Part shown: positions 32,339 through 46,522 of the stretch, piece by piece
Numbering within the stretch: the stretch's first letter is position 1
How the letters are laid out: every line of letters starts with the position of its first letter
Assembly: GCA_012960515.1 (NCBI GenBank)
Contig: DUBD01000191.1
Location: forward strand, 164 to 64,163
Direction: 5' to 3'
Source of the DNA: Bacteroidota bacterium
GTDB taxonomy: Bacteria; Bacteroidota; Rhodothermia; Rhodothermales; Rubricoccaceae
Length of the DNA: 64,000 nt
The notes under the pieces: generated by a model
The model's input: the letters and a program-made list of their open reading frames with translations, nothing else
Databases searched by the model: none
Told to the model about the DNA's origin: nothing
Position numbers and translations under genes: made by a program

Positions 32339-32356
32339 CCCTCCGCTAGCGGAGGG
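32339..32356. terminator. Perfect 18-bp palindrome between convergent genes
   Basis: CCCTCCGCTAGCGGAGGG; contains the minus-strand stop codon. Confidence 0.4.
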
Positions 32357-33341
32357 GCGCGAGCACGTCGAGGGCTTGGCTCACCGTCTCGACGACGGCC
32401 TCCACGCGCCCTGGGCCGTGCGCCGACGGGTTTTCCAACGCCCGGTCCACGACGAGGAGCCGCGTGCGCACAGAGGTCCCGTACGGGCGGTAGACGGCCC
32501 CGTCCACCTCGACGTCTGCCCGGAGCCGGTAGGGGTCGGCGTCGACGGCCTGGAAAAACGGCCGGTGCGTCGGTTTTGCTCGCCTCACGCCTGCGCTGAG
32601 GACGGCCACCAGTCGGCCGCCCGCGTCGAGCCGACGGAGAGCCTGGAGAACGTGGTCCGTCCCGACCGTCGGGACGCGGCGTCGGCCGAGCCGCCCGGCG
32701 GTCTGGGAGAAGGGCGGGTTCATGAGCACGACGTCGGCGCGGGCCTCGGGCGGAAGGACAGCGTCGAGGTGATCGGCGCTCTCGCGCGTGAGGGTCCGCG
32801 CCGGGTCCTGCCCGGCCTCGCGGAGCAACGCCGCCAGCAGGTCCGCCCGGCGGTCCGACAGCTCGTTTGCGTGGACGCTCGCGCCAGAGGCGAGCGCGAA
32901 GGTGCAGAGCGCCCCGGTCCCGGCCGAGGGCTCCAGCACACGGTGCCCCTCCCCCACCCCGCTGATCCACGCGCAGAGCCCCGCGTAGGCGGCGGGCGTC
33001 GAGAACTGCTGGTAGTCGTTCTGCTCCGCCGTGCGGCGCGTCTGGCTGGGCAGGAGCGCCGAGAGGCGCTCGACCTCGGCGAAAGCCTCGCGAGCGTCAG
33101 CGGGTGCGGTCGGGAGACGTCCGACGGTGTGGAGCAGGTGGAGGTGGAGTCCAAGTTCGGCGGCGTCGTAGGCGTCGCGCGGCGAGAAGGCTCCCTCGGC
33201 GAGCGTGCCGCCGTAGGCCTCGGCCGCGAGGTCGAAGAGGTCGGCCGCGGTCAAAGCCTGGGACGCGGCGACGGTGTGCTCGACGGCGTGAGCGAGGTCT
33301 CGACTCGCGATGACGTGGGGGGAGGCGTGCTGGGATCGCAT
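32346..33341 (-). CDS. N6-adenine DNA methyltransferase-like protein (N-terminal domain of strawberry-notch-type methylase/helicases)
   Basis: QQFSTP, VLEPSAGTG (motif I), VLMNPPF (motif IV), GRLVAVL. The likely start is ATG 33341, not the 34307 ORF start. Confidence 0.8.
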   Translation of the reverse strand: MRSQHASPHVIASRDLAHAVEHTVAASQALTAADLFDLAAEAYGGTLAEGAFSPRDAYDAAELGLHLHLLHTVGRLPTAPADAREAFAEVERLSALLPSQTRRTAEQNDYQQFSTPAAYAGLCAWISGVGEGHRVLEPSAGTGALCTFALASGASVHANELSDRRADLLAALLREAGQDPARTLTRESADHLDAVLPPEARADVVLMNPPFSQTAGRLGRRRVPTVGTDHVLQALRRLDAGGRLVAVLSAGVRRAKPTHRPFFQAVDADPYRLRADVEVDGAVYRPYGTSVRTRLLVVDRALENPSAHGPGRVEAVVETVSQALDVLAPLR

Positions 33342-33459
33342 GGCCGTAGGGGCAGAGATGGCTGGGGACGGGCGTCGCCAGAGGCCGCCCCGTCCGCACG
33401 CCATCTCGTCGCGTAGAGGCCCATGCTCACCGCCAGCCAGGCGGAGTGCAGGGTTCTGT

Positions 33460-34005
33460 TCACGTGCCCCACCAGGCACCGGAGCGCCCGGCGCAGACGA
33501 GCGAGAGGCCCCAGCCCGCAGGCGGCGAGACGCCCGACGGCAGCCACACGAGAGCCCGGACGCCCAGGCCGAGCGCGAGCGCCAGCGACGCCCACGACCC
33601 GGAGCCGAAGCCCGCGAAGCAAGCCGACGACGACCGGGACGGCGCCAGCCCCCGAGGGCACGCCCGCCCAGGCGCCGACACCCAGAGCGCGGACTGGGGG
33701 CCGGTACCGGCCCCACCCGCACCAGCCACACGGCGCACGACGGCGATAGACCGACGCGCAAAGCTGCCACGCCCCCACCCGAAGTGGGCCGCGCTGAACA
33801 CGAGCGCCGACGGCACCCCACGGGCCACCCGGTCAATGCCCGACGCGCAGCCGGTGACGACGGTGGCCCCCGGGGCGAACTGGCTGACCGCCCACGCGAC
33901 AGCCCGGAGGCAACCCGGGCCCGCAGCGCGGCTGCCAGAGACGCCAACGACGCACGCGGACTGAAGGACGCCAGCGACGGCCGAGACGGGAGATGGAGCA
34001 GGCAT
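33460..34005 (-). CDS. SLOG/DprA-like protein
   Basis: VVGVSGSR, VVTGCASGID, FARRS, GSGSWAS resemble the Rossmann-fold DprA/SLOG signature. Confidence 0.6.
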   Translation of the reverse strand: MPAPSPVSAVAGVLQSACVVGVSGSRAAGPGCLRAVAWAVSQFAPGATVVTGCASGIDRVARGVPSALVFSAAHFGWGRGSFARRSIAVVRRVAGAGGAGTGPQSALWVSAPGRACPRGLAPSRSSSACFAGFGSGSWASLALALGLGVRALVWLPSGVSPPAGWGLSLVCAGRSGAWWGT

Positions 34006-34794
34006 GGCGAGCGAGGCGAGTGAAGGGGGCGCCCCGAACTGGGGGGCGATGCTGCCTGCCGAGGCGCGCCGGAGGGGAGCGCAAAGCGGATCGCAGATCC
34101 GCGGGGCCGCCCGGAGCCACGCGCAGAGGAGCCCAGGTGGGCGGAGCGAGCATGGCGAGGACGGAATCGGAGATCCGCCCGCGTTTCGCGGGTGGGCGGA
34201 GTGTCCCTTGCGAGACCCGAGGGCGTGCCCGAGCGTCTGGCAGCCCCCCAGTCTGGGCGCTCCCGGTCATTGCCCCGCCCACCGCTCTGTGCGGACCACG
34301 AGCGCATTGCTCACTCCTCCTCCGCTAAGTGCTCGCTTGAGCGCTACGCCTCGGCGAGGTCTTGCTCGACACGTCCGCGTGCGACCAGAATCCTTTCTTG
34401 AGGCGGCGGTGCCGAGAGCGCCTCTGGCGCGGTGACGGGCGAGACTGGACGGGAGGCGGAGCGAAGGCCGCTCCGCGCGGTCATCCGCGCGCAAGGCCGA
34501 GAGCGGAGCTGACGGGAAGCCCCGACCGGAGGGAGGCACGGCCGCGACGTGAGCCCGACGCGCGGAGCGCGGCGAAGGGGGGCCGAGAGCGCCGTCCTCG
34601 GCGCGGGGAGCGATAGCGCCGCAAGCGGCGCGGCGAGCAGAGACCGAGCCGGACAGAGCGAACGCGAAAGGATGCCCGATTGAAGCGACGGGAGCGACGA
34701 GGCCCGCCTGTGGCGTCCAGGATGCCACCGGGGGACCGTTGGTGTGGTCACGCGCTGGCGTTACCGCTCGCTGGGTCGGGCGCCAGAGGCCCGG

Positions 34795-36005: not shown

Positions 36006-37456
36006 GCGGGCGTGCAGAGCTGGCTCCTCTCCCCTCCCCTGCCCACTCCGGTGCGTCCGCCTCGGAACCGAGGCGGGAGGCGTCGCGACCACGGCGCCTG
36101 TTCGCGCTCGTGGACTGCTCGGCGTTCTACTGCTCGTGCGAGCGCGTCTTCGACCCGAGCCTGGAGGGGGTGCCCGTAGCCGTGCTGTCCAACAACGACG
36201 GGTGCATCATCGCGCGTAGCCAGGAGGTCAAGGACCTGGGCATCCCGATGGGCGCGCCGTTCTTCAAGCACCGCGATGAGTTGGCGGCACAGGGCGTCCG
36301 GGTGTTCTCGTCGAACTACACCTTGTACGGCGACATGTCGCGCCGGGTGATGGCGTGCCTGGAGACGTTCACGCCGGACGTGGAGGTGTACTCGGTCGAC
36401 GAGGCGTTCCTGACCGTCCCGACGCCAGAGGGGTCGCCAGAGGCCGTGTGCGCCGCGATGGAGGCGCGCGCACGAGAGATCCGGGCGCGCGTGCTCCGGT
36501 GGACGGGGATCCCGGTGCGCGTCTCGTGGGCCGAGACGAAGACGCTGGCGAAGGCGGCGAGCGAGTGGGCCAAGGAGAAACTGGGGGCGGGGGGCGAGCC
36601 GTGCGTCTGCCTGTGGGGGCACCCCGACCGGGACGACTGGCTGGAGCGGATGGACGTGGGTGACGTGTGGGGCGTGGGGCGGCGCTGGGGCCAGTCGCTG
36701 CGCGACCTGGGCGGCTCGACGGCGGCCAAGCTGTCTCGGATGCCGGACCGATTGCTGCGGCAGCGGTTCAACGTGGTGCTGCTCCGGACGGCGATGGAGC
36801 TTCGGGGCGTCTCGTGCCTGCCCCTGGAGCAGGCGCCGGTGACACGCCAGACGCTGGTGAAGAGCCGGAGCTTCGGGGAGCCGACATCGGACGTGCGCGC
36901 GATCTCGCAGGCCGTGGCGACGCACGCAGCGCGGGCGGCGGAGAAGCTGCGGGCCGAGGGCCTGGTGGCGGGCCGGATCTCGGCGTTCGTGACGACGAAG
37001 CGGTTCGGGTCGGGGCCGCACCGCTCGGGCGGGTGCGACGAGGCGCTCCCCGCCACGGCCGACACGACGGCGCTCGTGGCGGCGGCACGGCGGTGCTTGA
37101 GGCGGGCCTACGTCGATGCCGACGCCAGAGGCCGCCCCTACCGCTACCGGAAGGCGGGCGTGATGCTGGCCGAAATCCGGCCGGAGGGGACGGAGCAGCG
37201 GGGCCTCTTTCCCATTGCCCGCGTCGCCTCGGCAGCGGACCGCCAGAGGCAACGAGCGCTCATGGAGGCGTTGGACGCGGCGAACCGTCGGTTCGGGAAG
37301 CGCACAGTCGTGGTGGCCGCGCAGGGATGCCCGTCGACGCTCCGGAGGACGCGGGACGGGTCGCCAGAGGCCCCGGGATGGGAGATGCGGCGGGAGCGGA
37401 TGAGCCCGCGGTACACGACGCGGTGGGACGAGCTAGCCGTCGTTAAACCTGGCTGA
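36002..37456 (+). CDS. umuC: Y-family DNA polymerase V subunit
   Basis: GTGA overlap; ALVDCSAFYCSCE, SNNDGC, YSVDEAF, WEMRRERMSPRYTT. Confidence 0.95.
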   Translation: MSGRAELAPLPSPAHSGASASEPRREASRPRRLFALVDCSAFYCSCERVFDPSLEGVPVAVLSNNDGCIIARSQEVKDLGIPMGAPFFKHRDELAAQGVRVFSSNYTLYGDMSRRVMACLETFTPDVEVYSVDEAFLTVPTPEGSPEAVCAAMEARAREIRARVLRWTGIPVRVSWAETKTLAKAASEWAKEKLGAGGEPCVCLWGHPDRDDWLERMDVGDVWGVGRRWGQSLRDLGGSTAAKLSRMPDRLLRQRFNVVLLRTAMELRGVSCLPLEQAPVTRQTLVKSRSFGEPTSDVRAISQAVATHAARAAEKLRAEGLVAGRISAFVTTKRFGSGPHRSGGCDEALPATADTTALVAAARRCLRRAYVDADARGRPYRYRKAGVMLAEIRPEGTEQRGLFPIARVASAADRQRQRALMEALDAANRRFGKRTVVVAAQGCPSTLRRTRDGSPEAPGWEMRRERMSPRYTTRWDELAVVKPG

Positions 37457-37504
37457 GCTGACGTCGTCGACACGGTCATGGCAATGTTCTTCCACTCTAC
37501 GACT

Positions 37505-38503
37505 CTACTCTTGCAATGGCTTAGAGTCCTCTAGTTCAGACGAGGCGGTCGTATCCTCGGGCGTCGACGCAGGACCCGGTCGTACTATTTGGGGCAGGGT
37601 GTCGAGCGCGGCGCGGACTCGGGCCTCGACAAGCGAATCCATGGTGGCCTGGAGATCCGGATCGTCCGCTAGGGTCACGGAATCGGTCGGCTCTTCAGAG
37701 GCGTCGGTGGCGCCGAGCACGGTTGAGACGCCGAGCCAGACGACAGCGATCAGCCCGATGTGGATCGCACGGGCGGCGGCGCGCTGGACGCCGACGAGGA
37801 AGTCGAGGCGGCCGTCGTTCTCGGCCGCAGCTTTGAAGAGGCGGGAGGCGTGGTACCGCTTGATCTGGTCACCGTCGGTCGCGTCAAACACGTCCCGGCG
37901 AACCTGAACAATGGACGTGGAGCCGGTCTGGAGGACGCGGAGGAGGAGGAAGAGGGCGGCGACGAAGGCGAGCCCCGCGACGGCAGCGGGCGTCGAGAGC
38001 GGAGCGTCGCTAAGCGACCAGATGGCGGCGAGGAGGAGGCCGCACAAAGTGAGTTGGAAGCGGGCCTTGGCCTGGACCGTCTCGGAGCGGTCGTCGGTCT
38101 CGGAAGCCACGCGCTCAGCGAGAGCGAGGAGGGCGTCGGCGTGGGCCGTGGACTCGGCGATCTCGTCGGCCGTGAGCTCCAGGCTGAGATCCCGTCTCGC
38201 CCCCTCGACGACCGTGTGCGGACGGTACTTCGAGGCGCGGACCTCAGCGAACGTGGGTTCCTCATAGAGGAGCCGCTGGAGGAGGAACGTGAGGGCGTCG
38301 CGGAGCCAGATGAGCGGTCGTTCGACGACCTTCGCGTAGACGTACCAGAACGGGTGCTCGTCGCGCCTCACCCGTCGCCACGCGCGGCGTAGGTGGCGCC
38401 GTGCCCATCGCCGACGCACTGCGAGGCGCGTCGTCCGCCGCTGGGACGGCGGTCGCGGCGGTGGCCCCGGCGGGCCTGGAGACGCTGGGGTCGGCGCGTT
38501 CAC
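37505..38503 (-). CDS. Multi-pass membrane protein coupled to the ATP-grasp gene
   Basis: GTG at 38503 overlaps the ATP-grasp TGA; three hydrophobic segments and an acidic tail. Confidence 0.7.
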   Translation of the reverse strand: MNAPTPASPGPPGPPPRPPSQRRTTRLAVRRRWARRHLRRAWRRVRRDEHPFWYVYAKVVERPLIWLRDALTFLLQRLLYEEPTFAEVRASKYRPHTVVEGARRDLSLELTADEIAESTAHADALLALAERVASETDDRSETVQAKARFQLTLCGLLLAAIWSLSDAPLSTPAAVAGLAFVAALFLLLRVLQTGSTSIVQVRRDVFDATDGDQIKRYHASRLFKAAAENDGRLDFLVGVQRAAARAIHIGLIAVVWLGVSTVLGATDASEEPTDSVTLADDPDLQATMDSLVEARVRAALDTLPQIVRPGPASTPEDTTASSELEDSKPLQE

Positions 38504-39456
38504 GGCTGGAATGCACGCTCGAAGAGGGTCCAGATCTCGGCCCCGCCCACGAGATCGAGCCACGCCCACTGCCCGTTGGGGTTAACCTCGAAGAAGACCC
38601 ATCGGCCGTCGTCGTCAACTGCGAGGTCGACGGCGGCGAAGCGGAGGCCGTAGCTCGCGACGAGGTCGCAGACGCCACGTTCAATGTCGTCGGGCAGGTC
38701 GACGGGCTCGTAGGCGACCCCACGCATCTCGTCGCGGCGGATGTCGAGCCGGGGGGTCTCGGACACGAGGTCGGCGAGGCCGAGCGCGACGGCGTGGCCG
38801 TCCACGAGCGTAACGCGGACGTCGAGCCGCTTCTCGATCCGCTCTTGGAAAAGGGTCGGGGCGCCGGCGAGGTCCGGGGGGTCGTCGATGTCAGCCCGGG
38901 TGAGGGCCGAGGTGTAGATAGCGGTGTCGTCGGACGGGTCGTCGCGCTCGAGGTAGCCGCTGGCGAGCGGCTTGGCAATGACACACCCGTCTGTTTCGCG
39001 CCAGAGGTCGAGGAGGCGGCCGGGGTCGCGGGTGACGAGGGTCCGGGGCGTGTGGAGGCCCAGCGACCGGGCGCGCGCGAGCTGCTCGATTTTGTGGGAC
39101 GCGCCGGCGTTGCGGGCGGGATGGTTGATCCAGCGCTCGGCAGGAACGAGCGCCAGGACGCCGTTGAGGGCCTCGGCCCATTCGAGACCGCGATGGTACT
39201 CCTCGTATGGATCTTCGGCTGGCCGACCTGGTGGCCGGAGGGGGCCGGGGCGCCGGTACCAGACCGCGCGCACCGTCTCGGGGGCGACTTCACGGCCGTG
39301 CGCGCGGAGTCGCGGGCCCCTGTCGAACGAGGCGTCGAGGTCGTCTGGGAGCGCGTCGGTGTCGAGCCGGAGGAGGGGAACCCGGCCGCCGAGGCGGTCG
39401 CAGAGGTAGTCGGCCGTCCGGTCCCCGCTGTGGGTCAAGACGAGGGCGGCGCTCAT
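38500..39456 (-). CDS. MvdC/MvdD-type ATP-grasp RiPP ligase (graspetide synthetase)
   Basis: VRAVWYRRP, INHP, HKIEQL, IAKPL, FQERIEKRLDVRVT, DIRR, FFEVNPNGQWAWL. Confidence 0.92.
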   Translation of the reverse strand: MSAALVLTHSGDRTADYLCDRLGGRVPLLRLDTDALPDDLDASFDRGPRLRAHGREVAPETVRAVWYRRPGPLRPPGRPAEDPYEEYHRGLEWAEALNGVLALVPAERWINHPARNAGASHKIEQLARARSLGLHTPRTLVTRDPGRLLDLWRETDGCVIAKPLASGYLERDDPSDDTAIYTSALTRADIDDPPDLAGAPTLFQERIEKRLDVRVTLVDGHAVALGLADLVSETPRLDIRRDEMRGVAYEPVDLPDDIERGVCDLVASYGLRFAAVDLAVDDDGRWVFFEVNPNGQWAWLDLVGGAEIWTLFERAFQP

Positions 39457-39881
39457 GCGGTGAGCGCGACGAGGGGCCGGGCGTAGACGCGCTGGTCCTG
39501 GTCCTCGCGCGAGCGGGTACTGGTGCCACTGGAGGCCGTTCCGTGTTGGTCCTGTTCCTCGCGGGTCTTGGTGGCCGTCAGGAGGGCGACGTGGTGGTCC
39601 GCCTCCTCTCGTGTCTCGGTGAACGTGGTAGTCGGGCCGGCGTGGAGCGGGCGGAGGGAGCGCTGCTGGTCCTGCTCCTCTCGGGTAGCCGTCTTGGTCG
39701 GACCCGCCGAGGGTGTGTCCTGGTCTTGCTCCTCGCGTGTGTCGGTGGCGGTCCCCGTCCCAAGAAGGGCGAGGGACCGGTCTTGGTCCGGCTCCTCACG
39801 AGTGAGCGTATGAGTCTTGGGGGCTACCTCGTCGCGCTGGGCGGTGGGCGTCTGGAAGTGTTGGATGAAGGCGGCGGGCAT
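39453..39881 (-). CDS. Multicore graspetide precursor with six TxTxTREExD cores
   Basis: 142 aa; short leader MPAAFIQHFQ...; cores THTLTREEPDQD, TATDTREEQDQD, TKTATREEQDQQ, TFTETREEADHH, TATKTREEQDQH, TSTRSREDQDQR; ATGA-coupled to the ATP-grasp gene. Confidence 0.88.
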   Translation of the reverse strand: MPAAFIQHFQTPTAQRDEVAPKTHTLTREEPDQDRSLALLGTGTATDTREEQDQDTPSAGPTKTATREEQDQQRSLRPLHAGPTTTFTETREEADHHVALLTATKTREEQDQHGTASSGTSTRSREDQDQRVYARPLVALTA

Positions 39882-39943
39882 TAGCGTTGTGAACTGATTC
39901 GACCAGGAGTTTAACCGAAGCCTTGGGTGCCAGCTGCTCTGTG

Positions 39944-42900
39944 CTACGCGCTCGCCCGAGGCGACGGGAGTGACGCATCGACGACGACGGACGTGACGTG
40001 ACGGTGGGGCTCGCTCGCGCTGGCGGCCTTGGCGGCCAACGCCGCACGCAGGCGCTCGATCCCCCCACGGCGTGCAGTGCGAGCCTTGGGATGGAGGTCT
40101 CCGGTTCCGGGGTCGAACCAGCCGGCCGATCCAAACCAGCCGACGAGATAGACGCCGTGCTGCCGGGTGACACCATTGAGGTATCCCTGGGCGAGCTGGT
40201 CGGCGAGGGCGTCGTAGAGGTGACGGTTCCAACTGGCCTTGACCTCAACGACGACGGTAGCCGTCTGCCCATCGGGCATCGCGTGCGATACGAGGAGGTC
40301 GGTGGCGTGGCCGCGCTTGACCTGGGCTTCCTGCGCGACCAGAACGCCGTGAGGACCGAGACGCTCGCGGAGGAAGCGGAGGGCGAGGTCCGAGAGCGCC
40401 CGCTCGTCCTTCGGGGCTGTGAGCGTGGGGTTCGCTCTCCGGCTCGAACGGAACACGGCGACGTCGTCGGGGAGGCGTGCGGCTGCCTTCGAGTCGGTTC
40501 GGGCGAGGGCCTCGGCCATCCGGAGCGCCTCGCGGCGCGTGACGCGGTTCCAGAGATCCTCGACGCGCGGGGCTTCCTCAGCGTGGAGCCATTCCTCGAA
40601 GTCGCCGAGGGATTCGACGACGATCTCGTAGAGGTCGCGGGCCGAGCGTGAGAGGCGCGCGCGGGTGTCGAGGAGGAGGGCGAGGAGGTCGTCGGGCTCG
40701 ACGGGACGGTGCGAACGCTCTCGCCGTAGGCGCTGCGCCGCGCCTACCTGGAAGTCCGTCGTCTCGGCGCCGAGCACGTCGCGGAGGCTCTCGATGGCCG
40801 CCAGCGACTCGGGCGTCGCTTGGCTCACCAGTTGAGATGAGAACGAGTGACGAAGGGACCGGATGTCGTCTTCGGGGGAGGGGGAATACACCCCTTTGGG
40901 CACGGGGGGGTCGTCCTCGGGGGGGAACAGGCTGTGGAGGCGGCGCTCCAGGGCCACGAGGGCCGATACCGGGGTCTCAGCGGGGGCGCCCCTCCCGCCC
41001 CACCGGCTGGCGATGCGGGTGAGGAGGGTGCGGGCGAAGGCGTCGTCTTGCCCGAAACGCGCGCCGATCTCGGTCCACGCCCGGGCGGGCTGGAGCCGGA
41101 CGAGGCGGATGGCCCAAGGGATGGCGTCGTCGGGGCTGTCCGTCCGCGCGCGCTCGGCCATCCAGTCGAGGACATCGGGGTGGCCGCTTTCGGCGAGGTG
41201 ATCCGCCGCCTCGGCGAGCGCAGCGTCGGAGAGGAGGCCGCCGCGCACCGCGTCCGCCAGCGTGTCGGAGAGGCGAGGGTCTTGGAGCCCTTCCATCGCG
41301 CCGAGCAGCGTGGACGAACACCGCCCGATCTGGAGCGCTCGGGCGAAGTCGGCGACGACACGGTCGGGGTCCGCGTCGTACGCCCGGCGGAGAAGGTCAC
41401 GACTCCGGCCGAGCGCGTTCCCGGAACCGCCTCTAGGCGAGAGGAGGAGTGCTGGCGCCCAGGCCGACCACGCGAACGTGCTTAGTCGGTCGAGCGCGTC
41501 CGGGTCGCGGTCGGCGAGCAACCAGAACGCCTTGACGCCGTCGACGACGCGGTAGGTGAACGTCTGTGGCTTCTCGTACGCCGTCCAGTCGCCCTCCCCC
41601 GGCCGGACGGCGCCGAGGTACGCCTCCGCCAGACGGGTGAGGCGGGCGCGGAGCGGCTCGTCGAGTGTGTCCCAGGCGCCGAGAGCGGTAATGTCGTGTG
41701 CCCAGTCCCCGTTGCGAAACCGCATCTTCCCGTTCTTCGGGTCGAGCGTGAGTAGATAGCAGACGTGTCGCCAGGCGGTCGCGACGTCCTTACCGTGCTC
41801 GGTGAGCGCCGCCTGGATCTGGTCCTGGATGGGAGGGTCCGGTGGGTCGGGGCCCTCGCGCTTCGGTCGCAACCACTGCTCCCGGATGCGTTGGACCTCC
41901 GGGTCGCCGAGGTCCCAGGCCCGGTAGTTCCAGCGGACGACGTAGGCGACGCGTTCCGAGGTTTCTTCGGCGGCCTCAATGGCGGCCTGGACGGTCTCGC
42001 GTGTCTCGACGTCCCCGGGCGTCGAGAGGTGGTTGAGGAGGCTCTGGCAGGCGTCAGCCGTGGCGTCGTCCCCGTCGGCTTCAGCACGCGCCAGCCGCTC
42101 GATCACCCATGGCACGTCGGCGGATCGGAACGGGGCGAACCGGACTTGGACGAGAGCCGCTGCCGAGCGGTCGGTCTCCTTCCGGGTCGCGCGGAGCAAA
42201 AGGCCGAGGAATGGCGCTCGGTCGGCTGCCTCGCTAAGGGCACGACGGAGATCGGCATCGTCGAGGTATCGCCCAAGGCGCACGTCGCGGAGCGCGAGGT
42301 CGACGAGGAGCAGGGCAAGGCGGCCGGCGAGGGCGGGGACATCGAGCCGGGTGGCGGCGGCGAGCACCACGGGTCCCGCGAGGTTTGGGGCGGCCTCTCC
42401 CCCGCCCTCGTGGACCCATTCGAGGGCGTCGACGAGTTGATCGTCCGTCACGTCACCCTCAGAAAGCGCTCGTTTGAAGAACACGTCGTCGGTGATGTCG
42501 TTCTCGTCGCGAGGGTCGAGCGAGACCGACGCTGCGAGGTCGCGGAACGAGAGGTCGCGAGGCCAGAGGACCGACCGGGCGGCTTTGCGGAGGGAGGCTG
42601 CCTCCTCACTTTCAGCGGAGTCGAGGGCGAGGGTTCGCAGCTCGGAAAGGGACTCCGGTCGGTCGAGGTGGGAGGCGCCGTAGACCATCGCGGTCCGCAC
42701 CTGGAGCGGAAGCGACGGGTCCAAAGCCCGTTCGATGAGGCCCGGCGCGAGATCGTGGAGCCTGGACTGGACCGCGATCCAGACGGCCTCGCGACGTGCC
42801 CACGGTGAGCGCGCTGGGGCATCAATCCAGTCGAGGAGCTGGTCTCGAAGGGTGGCGTGACGGAGCCCCCGGAGGGGACCGACCCCATCGCGGAAGTCAT

Positions 42901-44284
42901 CGAGACGCTCGTCGTCGAACGCGGCGAGGAGATCGTGGGTGGCCTGCTCGCGCCGGGCGTCGGAGAGGGCCTGTGGATCGCCGGCGAGCACGACGTGGGG
43001 GTCGGTCGCCGAAACCCTCTCATGGACGCCCTCGACGAGGGAGGCAGTCCACCCGGCTACGACGCGGAGTTGGGGCGCGACTCGCCCGTCGGAGGTCGCG
43101 GCGATGAGGTTGAGGGCTTGTCCCGGGGAGGCACCTCGGTGCCGGAGGTACCACGCCGCGAGGAAGTCCGCGATTGATTCCTGGGTCCACCGGAAGGCAT
43201 CGCGCCCGGCGGATCGGAAGAGGCCAGTGTGGCGGACCACGTCGGCCAGCTCGGCCTCTCCAACCGTTAGGGGCTGTCCCGCAGCGTCCCGTTCCAGCCC
43301 CTTTGCCTCGCGGGCAAGGAGCGCGCCCTCGGTGGCGAGACCAGGGGGCGCCAGAACGAGGGTGGCTCGTTCTCCGAAGCGCATGAGGGCCGCCAGGCGG
43401 GCCGCGACGCGGAGCCGGTCCTCGGGATCGAGGCGGCCGAGTTGGCGGGTCTCGCGGCGTTTCGAGTTGTGTTCGTGGCAGAGGAGCCGGGCGCCCTCCT
43501 CGAACAGTCCAGCTCGGGTGCTGGGGAAGCTGCGGTCGCGGGCGTAGAGCTTGAGGAGCCAGAAGAGGGTGAGGGGCTGTGTCGCCCACGGCCCCACGCC
43601 GTGCTCAACCACGGCTGCGAGGAAGTCGCCGGGGTCGACGCCCGCTGTCTCCGCTGCGAGGCGGACGTCAACGCGTCGGAGCGGGGCAAGGTGGAGCGTC
43701 TGAACGTTCTCAGTCCCCCACAGGCTGCGGAACGCTTTCGTGGCCGAGGCGGGCCAATCCCCTCCGCGGCTCGCGATGCGGAGACGGAGGGCTCCGGCTC
43801 GCTGGCGTCGGCGATCCGCGTCAGCGGGGAGGGTCTCCGTGAGGGCCTCGACCAGGAGCGCCGCCGCGTTCTCGACGCGGAGGAGCGCCTCGTCGTAGGC
43901 GTCGACGACGAGCGCGAGCGCCTCTCCCCTCTCTCGCCAAGCCGTGAGGGCCGGTGCGTCCGTGAGCTTCCGGTCGAAGCTCCGCTCGCCGCCGACCGTG
44001 CCGAGGTCGACGTAGGTGGAACCTGGGACGCGAAGGGCGTCGAGCTCAGTCGTCTTGCCTGCGCCGGGCTCCCCGAGAAGGACGAGGCACCGGACTCCCT
44101 CGAGGTCGGCAAGCGTGCGGGCGCTGGCGTTCGCGTAGCGGAAGCCTCGGATGTTTGGCTCGGGGTCCCTGAAGAACCCGTCCGCGTCGACGGAGGCATC
44201 CGTCCCTTCGGGCAACCAGAACCGTGTCCATGGAACGAGAGGCGACCCGTCCCGCGTTGTGAGTAAAGGGGTAGGGTGGCTCAT
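39944..44284 (-). CDS. NACHT/STAND-type NTPase with helical repeats and C-terminal PD-(D/E)xK-like domain
   Basis: LLGEPGAGKTT (Walker A), LVVDAYDE (Walker B), RIASR, long alpha-helical region, C-terminal TDLLV...VVEVKASW...QL..GYL. Confidence 0.8.
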   Translation of the reverse strand: MSHPTPLLTTRDGSPLVPWTRFWLPEGTDASVDADGFFRDPEPNIRGFRYANASARTLADLEGVRCLVLLGEPGAGKTTELDALRVPGSTYVDLGTVGGERSFDRKLTDAPALTAWRERGEALALVVDAYDEALLRVENAAALLVEALTETLPADADRRRQRAGALRLRIASRGGDWPASATKAFRSLWGTENVQTLHLAPLRRVDVRLAAETAGVDPGDFLAAVVEHGVGPWATQPLTLFWLLKLYARDRSFPSTRAGLFEEGARLLCHEHNSKRRETRQLGRLDPEDRLRVAARLAALMRFGERATLVLAPPGLATEGALLAREAKGLERDAAGQPLTVGEAELADVVRHTGLFRSAGRDAFRWTQESIADFLAAWYLRHRGASPGQALNLIAATSDGRVAPQLRVVAGWTASLVEGVHERVSATDPHVVLAGDPQALSDARREQATHDLLAAFDDERLDDFRDGVGPLRGLRHATLRDQLLDWIDAPARSPWARREAVWIAVQSRLHDLAPGLIERALDPSLPLQVRTAMVYGASHLDRPESLSELRTLALDSAESEEAASLRKAARSVLWPRDLSFRDLAASVSLDPRDENDITDDVFFKRALSEGDVTDDQLVDALEWVHEGGGEAAPNLAGPVVLAAATRLDVPALAGRLALLLVDLALRDVRLGRYLDDADLRRALSEAADRAPFLGLLLRATRKETDRSAAALVQVRFAPFRSADVPWVIERLARAEADGDDATADACQSLLNHLSTPGDVETRETVQAAIEAAEETSERVAYVVRWNYRAWDLGDPEVQRIREQWLRPKREGPDPPDPPIQDQIQAALTEHGKDVATAWRHVCYLLTLDPKNGKMRFRNGDWAHDITALGAWDTLDEPLRARLTRLAEAYLGAVRPGEGDWTAYEKPQTFTYRVVDGVKAFWLLADRDPDALDRLSTFAWSAWAPALLLSPRGGSGNALGRSRDLLRRAYDADPDRVVADFARALQIGRCSSTLLGAMEGLQDPRLSDTLADAVRGGLLSDAALAEAADHLAESGHPDVLDWMAERARTDSPDDAIPWAIRLVRLQPARAWTEIGARFGQDDAFARTLLTRIASRWGGRGAPAETPVSALVALERRLHSLFPPEDDPPVPKGVYSPSPEDDIRSLRHSFSSQLVSQATPESLAAIESLRDVLGAETTDFQVGAAQRLRRERSHRPVEPDDLLALLLDTRARLSRSARDLYEIVVESLGDFEEWLHAEEAPRVEDLWNRVTRREALRMAEALARTDSKAAARLPDDVAVFRSSRRANPTLTAPKDERALSDLALRFLRERLGPHGVLVAQEAQVKRGHATDLLVSHAMPDGQTATVVVEVKASWNRHLYDALADQLAQGYLNGVTRQHGVYLVGWFGSAGWFDPGTGDLHPKARTARRGGIERLRAALAAKAASASEPHRHVTSVVVDASLPSPRASA

Positions 44285-45975
44285 GGAGCGGGGTCCACTG
44301 TCCCATCCGGGTCGATGATGTGGACGTGGGGGGACTCGGCGAAGAGGATCCGCTCACCGGCGACGCGGGCAGCGACATGGCCCATCTCGAAGAAGTCGGG
44401 GGCTGGCTGACTGGGACGGCGGGTGTGGCGGTGGAGGATGCGCGGGGCATCAATGGGGATGCGAAGCGTGCGAGAGTGCCCCTCGACGTGCTCCACGACG
44501 ACGCGGCCAAACTGGACCACCGAGATGAGATGCCACTCGCCGAACGTGAGACCTGAGAGGTACGCGAAAGGGAAACCGTCTGGGTCTGCTCGCTGGAAGG
44601 CCTGGGCGCTGGGGTACGACGTCCGCATCTCGACGGCACCCTCGGTAGAGCCCTCGGCAAGCTGGTCGATCACCCCGATGATCTGTGCCTGGGCGAGCAC
44701 TTCCTTGAGGGACGCCTGAAGCTGGTCCTCGACTCGGTGGGCCTGAGCGATGCTCCAGAGGCCATCGAGGAGGGCTTCGATGGCGGGGAGGTGCTCGGGG
44801 TCTAGGTCCTGGATGGTCCCATGAACGGGCCCGCTGGACATCCGCCCCCCTCGGTCCGTGTGGACCTGGATCTCGATGGGAGCGTCGGCCTGCTGGGCGG
44901 CGACGGCGGTGCCGACGAACGAGACCATCTCGTGGAGGCCGCGGAGCGGGACGCGCTCGTCGGCGCCAGGCGGCTCGAACGAGACATCGAAGCGCTGGTC
45001 TTCGGCGCGGAACGTGACCGAGACGTGCCGGCCACGAAGGCGGACGCGGAGCGGGACGCGTCCCCCCTCCCCCTCCGGGTCATCCGGGACGTGCACCGAG
45101 GCGGAGGGCGAGACGAAGAGCTCGGCGCGAGCGGAGGCCTCGCGGGCGAGCGACGGGACGGAGAGGACGACGTCGGCGGCGTCGGCCGCGGTGGGGGGCG
45201 GCCCGACGAGGGTCCCGCCCTGGATGGAGAGGAGCGGGGTCTCGTCCCGGAGCCCGAACCGCTGGCGGAAGATGTCGGCGTGGGCGAACGGGACCTCGGT
45301 GCGAAGGCCGACCTCGAGCTCGGCTACTTGGACGACGGGGTGGACCCCTGGGGGCGGCGTGAGCGTGGCGACGCCGTGGCCGTCCTCGAAGCCGGCCGTC
45401 CGGACGACGGTCCGCTTCCAGGTGGCGTAGTCACCGGGGACCGCCTCGACCTCGGCGTCGAGGGCGGCGAGGAGGCCGCGGCCCGAAAGCGGCTCGACGA
45501 GGCGACCGCGGAGGTAGGCGAGGGAGCGGTTGACCTTGTGGAGGGCAGTGACGCCGGCGACCTCGCTCTGGCGCTGCTGTTCGAGGACGCCCCGGATCTC
45601 GTCCTCGCCAACGTGGACGAGGTAGACAGCCTGGGGGTGGTCCTGGCCGTTCATCTCCAGGACGAGGAAAAACGCGGGATCAGGGGTCTCGGCGAGGCGG
45701 AGCCAGGTGGTGAGGGCGACCTTCGAGACTCGGCCGGTGGGCTTGTCGGTGGCTTTGACCTGGATCCGGGCGCGGAGCGGGAACGCGTCGCGGTGGCCGA
45801 GGGTGGGCTCGCCGTCGCCGGCGGCATCGGGAGGCGACTCGAGGAGGCCGTCCCATCCGGCGCGGTCGTCGAGCGAGCCGTTGAGGACGTAGCCCACGCT
45901 GTGGACCCACGAGGCGAGGACGCTCTCGCCGAGCTTACCGAGGGACTCGCGGGACCGGTAGACCTTGGAGGGCAT
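44281..45975 (-). CDS. DUF4365-like (REase-fold) N-terminal domain protein
   Basis: LGKLGE...DDRAGWDGLLE...RIQVKAT signature; ATGA overlap with the NACHT gene. Confidence 0.6.
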   Translation of the reverse strand: MPSKVYRSRESLGKLGESVLASWVHSVGYVLNGSLDDRAGWDGLLESPPDAAGDGEPTLGHRDAFPLRARIQVKATDKPTGRVSKVALTTWLRLAETPDPAFFLVLEMNGQDHPQAVYLVHVGEDEIRGVLEQQRQSEVAGVTALHKVNRSLAYLRGRLVEPLSGRGLLAALDAEVEAVPGDYATWKRTVVRTAGFEDGHGVATLTPPPGVHPVVQVAELEVGLRTEVPFAHADIFRQRFGLRDETPLLSIQGGTLVGPPPTAADAADVVLSVPSLAREASARAELFVSPSASVHVPDDPEGEGGRVPLRVRLRGRHVSVTFRAEDQRFDVSFEPPGADERVPLRGLHEMVSFVGTAVAAQQADAPIEIQVHTDRGGRMSSGPVHGTIQDLDPEHLPAIEALLDGLWSIAQAHRVEDQLQASLKEVLAQAQIIGVIDQLAEGSTEGAVEMRTSYPSAQAFQRADPDGFPFAYLSGLTFGEWHLISVVQFGRVVVEHVEGHSRTLRIPIDAPRILHRHTRRPSQPAPDFFEMGHVAARVAGERILFAESPHVHIIDPDGTVDPAP

Positions 45976-46153
45976 GGGACGGATGGGGCGGCCCCTCCCC
46001 TGGCCGACCGGCGCCAGTGAGGCGCTCAGCGACCTTCTCCTGCGTCGCGACTGCCGGACGGGGCCCGCGCCGGATTCAGGCTCGGCGCGCAACAGGGCGT
46101 GCGCTAGGTGCTTCTGGCGGGGCGTGTACAGGCGGGGAGGCTCCGGGCGGGTG

Positions 46154-46522
46154 TCAGGAGGCCACGTACTCGCGGATGTAGGCTTCGAGGACGGAGGTCA
46201 TCGTGACGCCGTCGGTGGCGGCGCGGACCTTGAACTGGCGGTGGAGGTCGGCGGGCAGGAGGAGGTTGATGCGGGAGCGGGGCACATCGTCTTCCGATGA
46301 AGCGATCTTCATTTCTTCCTTTGCCGCTTTCCGTTTCCGCGGGGTGGCCTCCCCCCTCCCCTGCCGCGTGGGCCTTTGCGCCTCTGGCGTGGGCTCGGGG
46401 TCATCGGCGACCTGCCCGAGCAAGTCGTCGAGGTCGCCGACATAGGAGGCGGGCTTCTTGGTGACGCCGCCGAGGGGGTTGCTCGCGCGTCCCTTCGGGG
46501 TCGCTTTTGGGGTCTTGGCCAT
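46154..46522 (-). CDS. ParG/CopG-like ribbon-helix-helix partition protein
   Basis: Disordered N-terminus; C-terminal RINLLLPADLHRQFKVRAATDGVTMTSVL; follows parA. Confidence 0.8.
   Translation of the reverse strand: MAKTPKATPKGRASNPLGGVTKKPASYVGDLDDLLGQVADDPEPTPEAQRPTRQGRGEATPRKRKAAKEEMKIASSEDDVPRSRINLLLPADLHRQFKVRAATDGVTMTSVLEAYIREYVAS

Follow-up and report, generated by a model that had tools for sequence, protein, structure and literature searches.

Introduction

Graspetide ligases, such as those of microviridin, plesiocin and thuringinin, form omega-ester macrolactones from Thr/Ser and Glu/Asp. Here we describe a locus of this class on a 64-kb stretch of contig DUBD01000191.1 (hereafter the window, meaning the whole of the DNA that was analysed), a plasmid-like contig of a marine metagenome-assembled genome. 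A precursor gene with six repeated cores, an ATP-grasp ligase gene and a gene for a conserved membrane protein follow one another on the minus strand, and in our judgement this trio is probably a self-contained, horizontally mobile graspetide cassette, its ester chemistry being proposed by analogy with the known members of the class.

The gene order bears a close resemblance to that of thuringinin (group 3, Bacillus thuringiensis) and of groups 5 and 6, in which a multi-core precursor is followed by a single ATP-grasp ligase and then by an uncharacterised membrane protein; a core that is first Thr-rich and then Glu/Asp-rich, and a short hydrophobic docking motif in the leader, are also shared. 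In the thuringinin-like cassettes defined by Makarova et al. (2022; PMC8939145) the precursor is cluster 13 and the membrane protein cluster 18, and a transport role was proposed for the latter, which is uncharacterised and specific to thuringinin loci. Plesiocin clusters, like those of thuringinin, include a membrane protein in their layout (bioRxiv 10.1101/2021.05.19.444834). The membrane partner in the window is detectably homologous to the proteins found after group-5/6-type ligases. However, the window ligase is only 26–33% identical to the group-5/6-type ligases and belongs to a different, well-supported clade, the gap between the Thr and acidic clusters of the window cores is 2–3 residues shorter than in thuringinin and group-6 cores, and the phyla differ: Planctomycetota, Cyanobacteriota, Verrucomicrobiota and this marine bacterium, as against Bacillota, Bacteroidota and Pseudomonadota for thuringinin and groups 5 and 6.

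Three other systems are instructive. Plesiocin (group 2, PsnA2/PsnB, Plesiocystis pacifica; PDB 7DRM) similarly combines several repeated cores with one ATP-grasp ligase that makes nested hairpin-like esters, but its Thr residues are adjacent (TTxxxxEE) whereas those of the window cores alternate, and PsnB is the solved ligase most distant from ours (E 8.5e-10). The microviridins (group 1; MdnA with MdnB/MdnC) provide the nearest solved ligases and the same logic of helical-leader recognition, but are built on a single core, two ligases (ester and amide), an acetyltransferase and a peptidase-ABC exporter, none of which is part of the window system. Lastly, the actinobacterial SAV_5884-type ligases (TIGR04187), which we take to include the fuscimiditide-type group 13, are the top named family for the window ligase and its sister in the tree; their loci differ in having single-core precursors and no membrane partner, and the trio described here has no counterpart of their O-methyltransferase. 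What sets the window system apart is the compact spacing of its cores and the clade of its ligase; its class, gene layout and overall core design all have precedents. This clade may already carry a number among the 12 groups of Lee et al. (2020) or the 24 of Ramesh et al. (2021); here it is set apart from groups 1, 2, 3 and 6 by core motif and from groups 5 and 6 by ligase clade.

Organization of the precursor gene

The features of the trio are as follows.

39453..39881, minus strand: graspetide precursor gene, 142 amino acids, leader and six cores (from the translation and motif positions)
39816..39881, minus strand: leader MPAAFIQHFQTPTAQRDEVAPK, residues 1–22, with a docking-type F-x-x-x-F motif
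39780..39815, minus strand: core 1, THTLTREEPDQD (motif position, as for all cores)
39717..39752, minus strand: core 2, TATDTREEQDQD; a preceding T-G gives four alternating Thr
39663..39698, minus strand: core 3, TKTATREEQDQQ
39591..39626, minus strand: core 4, TFTETREEADHH
39543..39578, minus strand: core 5, TATKTREEQDQH
39489..39524, minus strand: core 6, TSTRSREDQDQR
38500..39456, minus strand: ATP-grasp peptide ligase, 318 amino acids (NCBIfam, Pfam and PDB matches)
37505..38503, minus strand: conserved membrane partner, 332 amino acids, GTG start

The three genes are translationally coupled through overlapping starts and stops, and the same arrangement is found in many phyla. An ATGA at 39453–39456 holds both the stop of the precursor gene and the start of the ligase gene, whilst the start of the membrane partner overlaps the stop of the ligase gene as GTGA at 38500–38503. 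The precursor reads MPAAFIQHFQTPTAQRDEVAPK-THTLTREEPDQD-...-TATDTREEQDQD-...-TKTATREEQDQQ-...-TFTETREEADHH-...-TATKTREEQDQH-...-TSTRSREDQDQR-RVYARPLVALTA, with MPAAFIQHFQTPTAQRDEVAPK as the leader and RVYARPLVALTA following core 6. All six cores fit T-x-T-x-[T/S]-R-E-[E/D]-x-D and begin at residues 23, 44, 62, 86, 102 and 120, giving a start-to-start spacing of 16–24 residues; in four of them the acidic residue at position 12 (D12) is replaced, by Q, H, H and R. A reading of the same DNA made from the sequence alone (the sequence-only reading) had described a multi-core graspetide precursor with five TxTxTREExD cores and one TxTxSREDxD core 16–24 residues apart, a leader of about 20 residues and an ATGA coupling to an ATP-grasp ligase. 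The translation and the motif positions bear this out, the leader measuring 22 residues, and the assignment to the graspetide class agrees with matches of the ligase to MvdC/MvdD-type NCBIfam models and to MdnB.

The pattern T.T.[TS]RE[ED].D was found nowhere else in the six frames of the 64-kb window, and when the precursor protein was shuffled 100,000 times, only 9 of the shuffled sequences contained it. Between pairs of cores, 21–28 of 36 nucleotides and 5–10 of 12 amino acids are identical, and synonymous codons differ, which indicates old copies held by selection at the protein level rather than a recent DNA repeat; Tandem Repeats Finder reported no DNA repeat at the precursor, the repetition existing at the protein level only. 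The same six-core set, in the same order, is found in the orthologous precursor of locus L002 (related loci are numbered in this way throughout). A word-based homologue search with the precursor returned no matches, and other relatives were located through the ligase. No sigma-70-like promoter was found in 37300–46500, and the sole terminator-like match in that interval, which lies within the neighbouring NACHT gene, is no more than would be expected by chance.

The leader contains PAAFIQHF, and the first five letters of this stretch, PAAFI, conform to the leader motif Phhx(1,2)h described in PMC8939145. Residues 3–7, which overlap the F-x-x-x-F motif, form the only helix that AlphaFold2 predicts in the precursor. 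When 14 precursors of the subclade are aligned, the motif appears as F[W/L]xxF[E/Q]E, with F5 invariant and F9 conserved in at least 90%, and we consider it the likely docking element for the ligase. Both marks of the graspetide class are present at the locus, namely a leader docking motif with a Thr/Ser- and Asp/Glu-rich core, and an MvdC/MvdD-type ATP-grasp ligase encoded beside the precursor. The AlphaFold2 model of the whole precursor is otherwise disordered, and was dropped as a guide to hairpin geometry.

The ATP-grasp ligase and its relatives

Among the NCBIfam models the ligase matches TIGR04187 (2e-68), TIGR04185 (MvdC; 1e-45) and TIGR04184 (MvdD; 3e-38), and the Pfam MvdD pre-ATP-grasp domain is present. 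Its closest solved structures are MdnB (5ig8, 5e-30) and MdnC (5ig9, 1.7e-29), and in the PDB comparison its C-terminal FFEVNPNGQW aligns with FLEVNPGGEW. On these matches the protein is a predicted graspetide ligase of the MvdC/MvdD-type superfamily that lies outside the named or structurally characterised subfamilies; membership of TIGR04187 (GRASP_SAV_5884) is not indicated, the score being 230.8 bits with a curated cut-off of 350.

A scan of one genome per species showed that ligase identity to the window drops sharply, with about 36 loci at 40–51% and the remainder at 26–37%. In a maximum-likelihood tree the window ligase, that of L002 (71% identity) and that of L003 (53%) fall within a clade of 37 rows supported by 99% in the Shimodaira–Hasegawa-like approximate likelihood ratio test (SH-aLRT), whose members come from Planctomycetota (13), Cyanobacteriota (5), Verrucomicrobiota (3), Myxococcota and others. 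The sister of this clade is formed by the actinobacterial SAV_5884-type ligases, with 81% SH-aLRT only, and the group-5/6-type loci fall in a separate set of 28 Bacteroidota/Proteobacteria ligases (83% support) across the tree. The three-gene layout of a thuringinin-like cassette is present in the window, but its ligase does not group with the group-5/6 ligases in this tree, among whose rows the thuringinin and plesiocin ligases are not included.

Most ligases of the clade are preceded by precursors with T.T-rich acidic cores. In the subclade that includes the window, 53 compact cores give the pattern T(51)-x-T(50)-x-[T26/Q8/S7]-R(47)-E(50)-E(46)-[P/Q]-D(49)-Q(43)-D(31), so that the near-invariant Thr residues are those at the first and third positions (T1 and T3) only. 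The cores of the other subclade (sister subclade B) read GTxTxTxVRxEQPDxD, which has group-6 spacing, or are of the cyanobacterial type GTQTRTDSREQSDQD. Among 51 independent metagenome precursors, at least one compact core, of the form T-x-T-x-x-[R/K]-E-E-x-D-Q-D, is present in 22 and group-6 spacing in 24. The sequence-only reading had described an unusually compact motif; this motif is no isolated case, being the common core of the whole ligase subclade. The compact motif is real and distinct in its spacing, yet common in the clade and not unique to the window.

The absence of a match to the microviridin, plesiocin and thuringinin motifs, claimed earlier, was borne out by expression searches of the precursor with T.K.PSD, TT....EE and T..T...E..D.D, all of them negative. 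The comparison with published group motifs was carried as far as groups 1, 2, 3 and 6, and none of the forms TxKxPSDx[D/E] (group 1), TTxxxxEE (group 2), TxxTxxxExxDxD (group 3) and T-x-T-x-T-(4)-E-x-x-D-x-D (group 6) was found in the window precursor; the group-6 spacing was taken from the exemplars in Fig. S2B of Makarova et al. and from L067. That spacing does occur in sister subclade B and in at least one core of both L003 and L088. These two loci, the closest outgroups, combine, in one precursor served by one ligase, a single compact core TKT[V/L]TDTREE[N/D]D[D/Q]D, the counterpart of window core 2, with longer-loop cores such as TQTATRISGEDTDAD. Because both loop lengths share a precursor and a ligase, the compact core is better seen as a short-loop, group-6-like variant than as a separate topology class, and the suggestion of a possibly new topology is weakened. 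The compact core looks like the short-loop end of a continuous thuringinin/group-6-like hairpin design, made uniform across six repeats in the lineage of the window and L002. It also follows from these mixed-loop relatives that the ligase probably tolerates different loop lengths.

In the precursors of L003 (4360–5004), L088 (870–1394) and L091 (289–738), five core designs occur in each peptide, some of them with long loops rich in glycine, of which TMTKGGSESDGQDEDED is an example; should all of these cores be modified, the ligases concerned would be unusually tolerant. A further element, [Y/F]xAIP[R/K], is conserved after each core in the relatives and degenerate in the window, and may serve for cleavage or for binding. 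The strings EEPDQD, EEQDQD, REEPD and similar are absent from the searched parts of the PMC8939145 supplements, matches to them in the searchable literature are few and unrelated, and no characterised product is reported there for this clade.

The membrane partner

Hydropathy places a transmembrane hairpin at residues 151–199 of the membrane partner and a third transmembrane segment at 241–269. A basic N-terminal stretch of 150 residues and an acidic tail at the other end point to an N-in, C-out topology, and the AlphaFold2 model is confident and all helical, with a predicted local distance difference test (pLDDT) score of 82. The sequence-only reading had stated that no protease, acetyltransferase or transporter is adjacent to the precursor and ligase. 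This stands for the protease and the acetyltransferase, but as regards a transporter it overlooked this conserved membrane protein, whose gene overlaps the stop of the ligase gene.

A profile search found a homologue of the partner directly after the ligase at 34 of 36 related genome loci, of which the other two lie at or near contig ends, and at 44 of the 47 metagenome loci that have at least 900 nucleotides of downstream sequence. The family counts 263 representatives at E<=1e-30 among 1.8 billion. Weaker homologues (17, with E values from 1e-10 to 9e-3, 14 of them below 1e-3) follow ligases of Bacteroidota, Proteobacteria and Nitrospirota, and the precursors of these distant ligases carry group-5-like ELxTKTxxxxExDD and group-6-like GTETFTKTxxExxDSD cores.

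Collagen-type G-x-y repeats end 14 of 34 partner homologues (Pfam Collagen, best E 6.7e-14), including those of L014, L016, L018, L019, L013, L037, L007 and L006. Such tails suggest a stalk of three chains on the side predicted to face outwards; the window protein has its acidic tail in their place.

Distribution and genomic surroundings

The ligase is present as a single copy in its own genome and is absent from 4 genomes of the same genus and 20 of the same family. Elsewhere the trio is found near a type IIG restriction-modification enzyme, a type I methylase, AbiE, BrxA/B, MADS genes, integrases, a relaxase and coupling proteins, and also near PtsI, a P-type ATPase, a Clp protease and other housekeeping genes. 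No DNA match was found in a plasmid collection, and the viral contigs searched held distant ligases only, at 28–36% identity.

A block of five genes that includes the trio hardly varies among marine and vent metagenomes spanning 2014 to 2025, the one recurrent single-nucleotide polymorphism (SNP) being at 38677. To its left, the 3' end of a umuC-like gene (37072–37320) carries about 15 strain SNPs, as against the almost invariant block on the right, and contigs break at ~37403–37405 across seven public runs from six studies; this edge looks like a recombination boundary. An apparent empty site, in which 37443 is joined to 46161 (run X7, depth 4.8 vs 18), was rejected, having 30 letters on its shorter side and being absent from four other runs. 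Within the window, an open reading frame of 653 residues (32346–34307, minus strand) matches the PADLOC mad2 methyltransferase (MADS) in its C-terminal half (1.3e-16), and mad2, mad3 and mad8 are each among the neighbours of the trio in three other loci.

Proposed mechanism

By analogy with the known graspetide ligases, the window ligase would dock on the leader helix and phosphorylate Glu/Asp side chains in each core to give acyl phosphates, and the hydroxyls of Thr/Ser would then attack the activated carboxylates, closing omega-ester macrolactones. The register T1-x-T3-x-T5 | R6-E7 | E8-x-D10-x-D12 would fit a 12-residue beta-hairpin with a two-residue turn, in which the cross-strand pairs would be T5-E8, T3-D10 and T1-D12, allowing at most three nested esters per core. 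The sequence-only reading put forward up to three esters per core; three stands as an upper bound, since the fifth position is Thr in 26 of the 53 subclade cores and D12 is lost in four window cores. As T1 and T3 alone are near-invariant across the clade and D12 is so often lost in the window, two to three esters per core would be expected, so that the peptide as a whole would lose approximately 12–18 waters. The membrane partner, predicted to lie N-in and C-out, would then most likely serve in export, release or surface retention of the product, its predicted outward-facing tail being collagen-like in many homologues; this is the least certain step.

A number of observations weigh against this reading. 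We infer the formation, number and connectivity of the esters from established graspetide chemistry, and the AlphaFold2 model of the precursor in its unmodified state shows no hairpins (pLDDT 57). For each named maturase family in NCBIfam, the score of the ligase falls short of the curated cut-off. For the transport role, no PDB structure matched the model of the membrane partner at E<=0.001 in a fold search, and Pfam returned weak 8xMP matches only, in 4 of 34 family members; moreover, neither a leader peptidase nor a recognisable transporter is encoded at the trio. Contigs of the marine metatranscriptome run X14 cover 37376–46500 at >=99.9% identity, and their depth of ~14–16 is flat across 10 kb, which could reflect transcription and equally DNA carry-over.

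Alternative explanations

The alternative that survives best concerns only the fate of the product and is compatible with the cassette described above. It holds that the peptide stays uncut, as one 142-residue multi-hairpin protein that could serve, for example, as a multivalent protease inhibitor or a surface-bound scaffold. No peptidase for the leader or for the stretches between cores is encoded nearby, there is no double-glycine site before the first core, and products of the plesiocin type have been treated as peptides with several cores (PMC11626197; bioRxiv 10.1101/2021.03.09.434688). The [Y/F]xAIP[R/K] linker of the relatives is as easily a binding element as a cleavage site, but in its [Y/F]xAIPR form it has a basic last residue, at which a protease might cut, and host proteases may be encoded elsewhere. 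We regard an uncut product as possible, though doubtful.

A second alternative arises from the genes that adjoin the trio in the window and in three related loci.

39944..44284, minus strand: NACHT/STAND NTPase, 1446 amino acids, 62 bp upstream of the precursor; a neighbour, not shown to be part of the system
L002, 3200–7531: NACHT gene upstream of the trio with a 26-bp gap; 54% identity to the window NACHT protein (ligase 71%)
L088, 3393–7733: NACHT gene downstream of the trio with a 153-bp gap, umuDC also nearby; 67% identity to the window NACHT protein (ligase 52%)
L009: NACHT gene downstream of the trio, after a DUF4209 gene; 25% identity to the window NACHT protein (ligase 47%)

In NCBIfam the window NACHT protein matches the antiphage proteins EruA (2.6e-68) and HyoA (1.8e-39), both far below the curated cut-offs; with 231 bits to a cut-off of 1000 it is a distant relative of EruA rather than a member of that family. 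It could be proposed that the trio and this NTPase form one immune module, with the peptide or the membrane partner acting as a phage-protease inhibitor, a guarded decoy or a membrane effector arm. In its boldest form, the cross-linked multi-hairpin peptide and its membrane partner would help to sense or stop phage, for instance as a decoy that resists proteases or by inhibiting a phage maturation protease. An EruA-like NACHT gene adjoins the trio, on its strand, in four loci and in two gene orders (in L009 with the DUF4209 gene between), and the incongruent divergence of NACHT protein and ligase, taken with the two gene orders, implies that the pairing was either rebuilt or kept through rearrangement; if re-paired, the two modules have nevertheless stayed adjacent. 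Other STAND-type or DUF4062 proteins flank the trio in L003, L033 and L089/L090. However, when 84 additional metagenome-derived loci were searched with a profile of the four NACHT proteins, no further copy came up, the only other match being a weak one in L033, and at most loci of the clade the neighbours are unrelated and include housekeeping genes. The NACHT protein has, by the account of the sequence-only reading alone, an apparent effector-like C-terminal domain of its own, no PADLOC model matches any of the three trio proteins, and defence genes cluster in islands anyway. The searchable literature held nothing relevant on EruA/HyoA or 8xMP, and nothing that joins ATP-grasp, NACHT, anti-phage and defence system. 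A joint immune module appears unlikely on this evidence.

A DUF4209/EMARD_N protein is encoded beside the EruA-like NACHT gene in L002 (1–554) and L009 (5608–7503). The 603-residue gene in the equivalent position of the window (44281–46092) has no Pfam, NCBIfam or PADLOC match and no BLAST similarity to these two proteins. DUF4062-containing proteins flank the trio in L089 (7856–9268) and L090 (10091–11503), with 470 residues each, and in L033 (1746–5921; 1391 residues, with a weak NACHT signal). Upstream of the precursor, L089 and L090 have three further unknown genes in common (273, 206 and 364 residues).

Least probable of all is that the trio itself is a stand-alone conflict system on mobile elements, with the membrane protein as a pore-type effector or immunity protein and the peptide as a regulator or toxin: the cassette is accessory, lies on a plasmid-like contig, is often found among restriction-modification, Abi, BREX, MADS, integrase and conjugation genes, has no peptidase or exporter, and includes a strictly conserved membrane protein whose collagen-like tails (14/34) suggest oligomers, but that protein resembles no known membrane effector (no PADLOC match, weak 8xMP only in Pfam, no fold match in the PDB), no close relatives were found on viral contigs, and many loci have ordinary chromosomal settings.

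Significance

Graspetides are valued as rigid, protease-inhibiting scaffolds, and the clade to which the window ligase belongs is large, with hundreds of ligase homologues at approximately 45–55% identity. At 12 residues, the compact core is about the shortest arrangement that would accommodate a three-rung ester ladder, and may offer a minimal stapled-hairpin unit for engineering, whilst a ligase that tolerates different loop lengths would be useful for library making. The repeated siting of the cassette beside a NACHT defence gene provides a testable lead on the cellular role of these peptides, and a NACHT-linked immune module, if true, would be the first native graspetide function in immunity.

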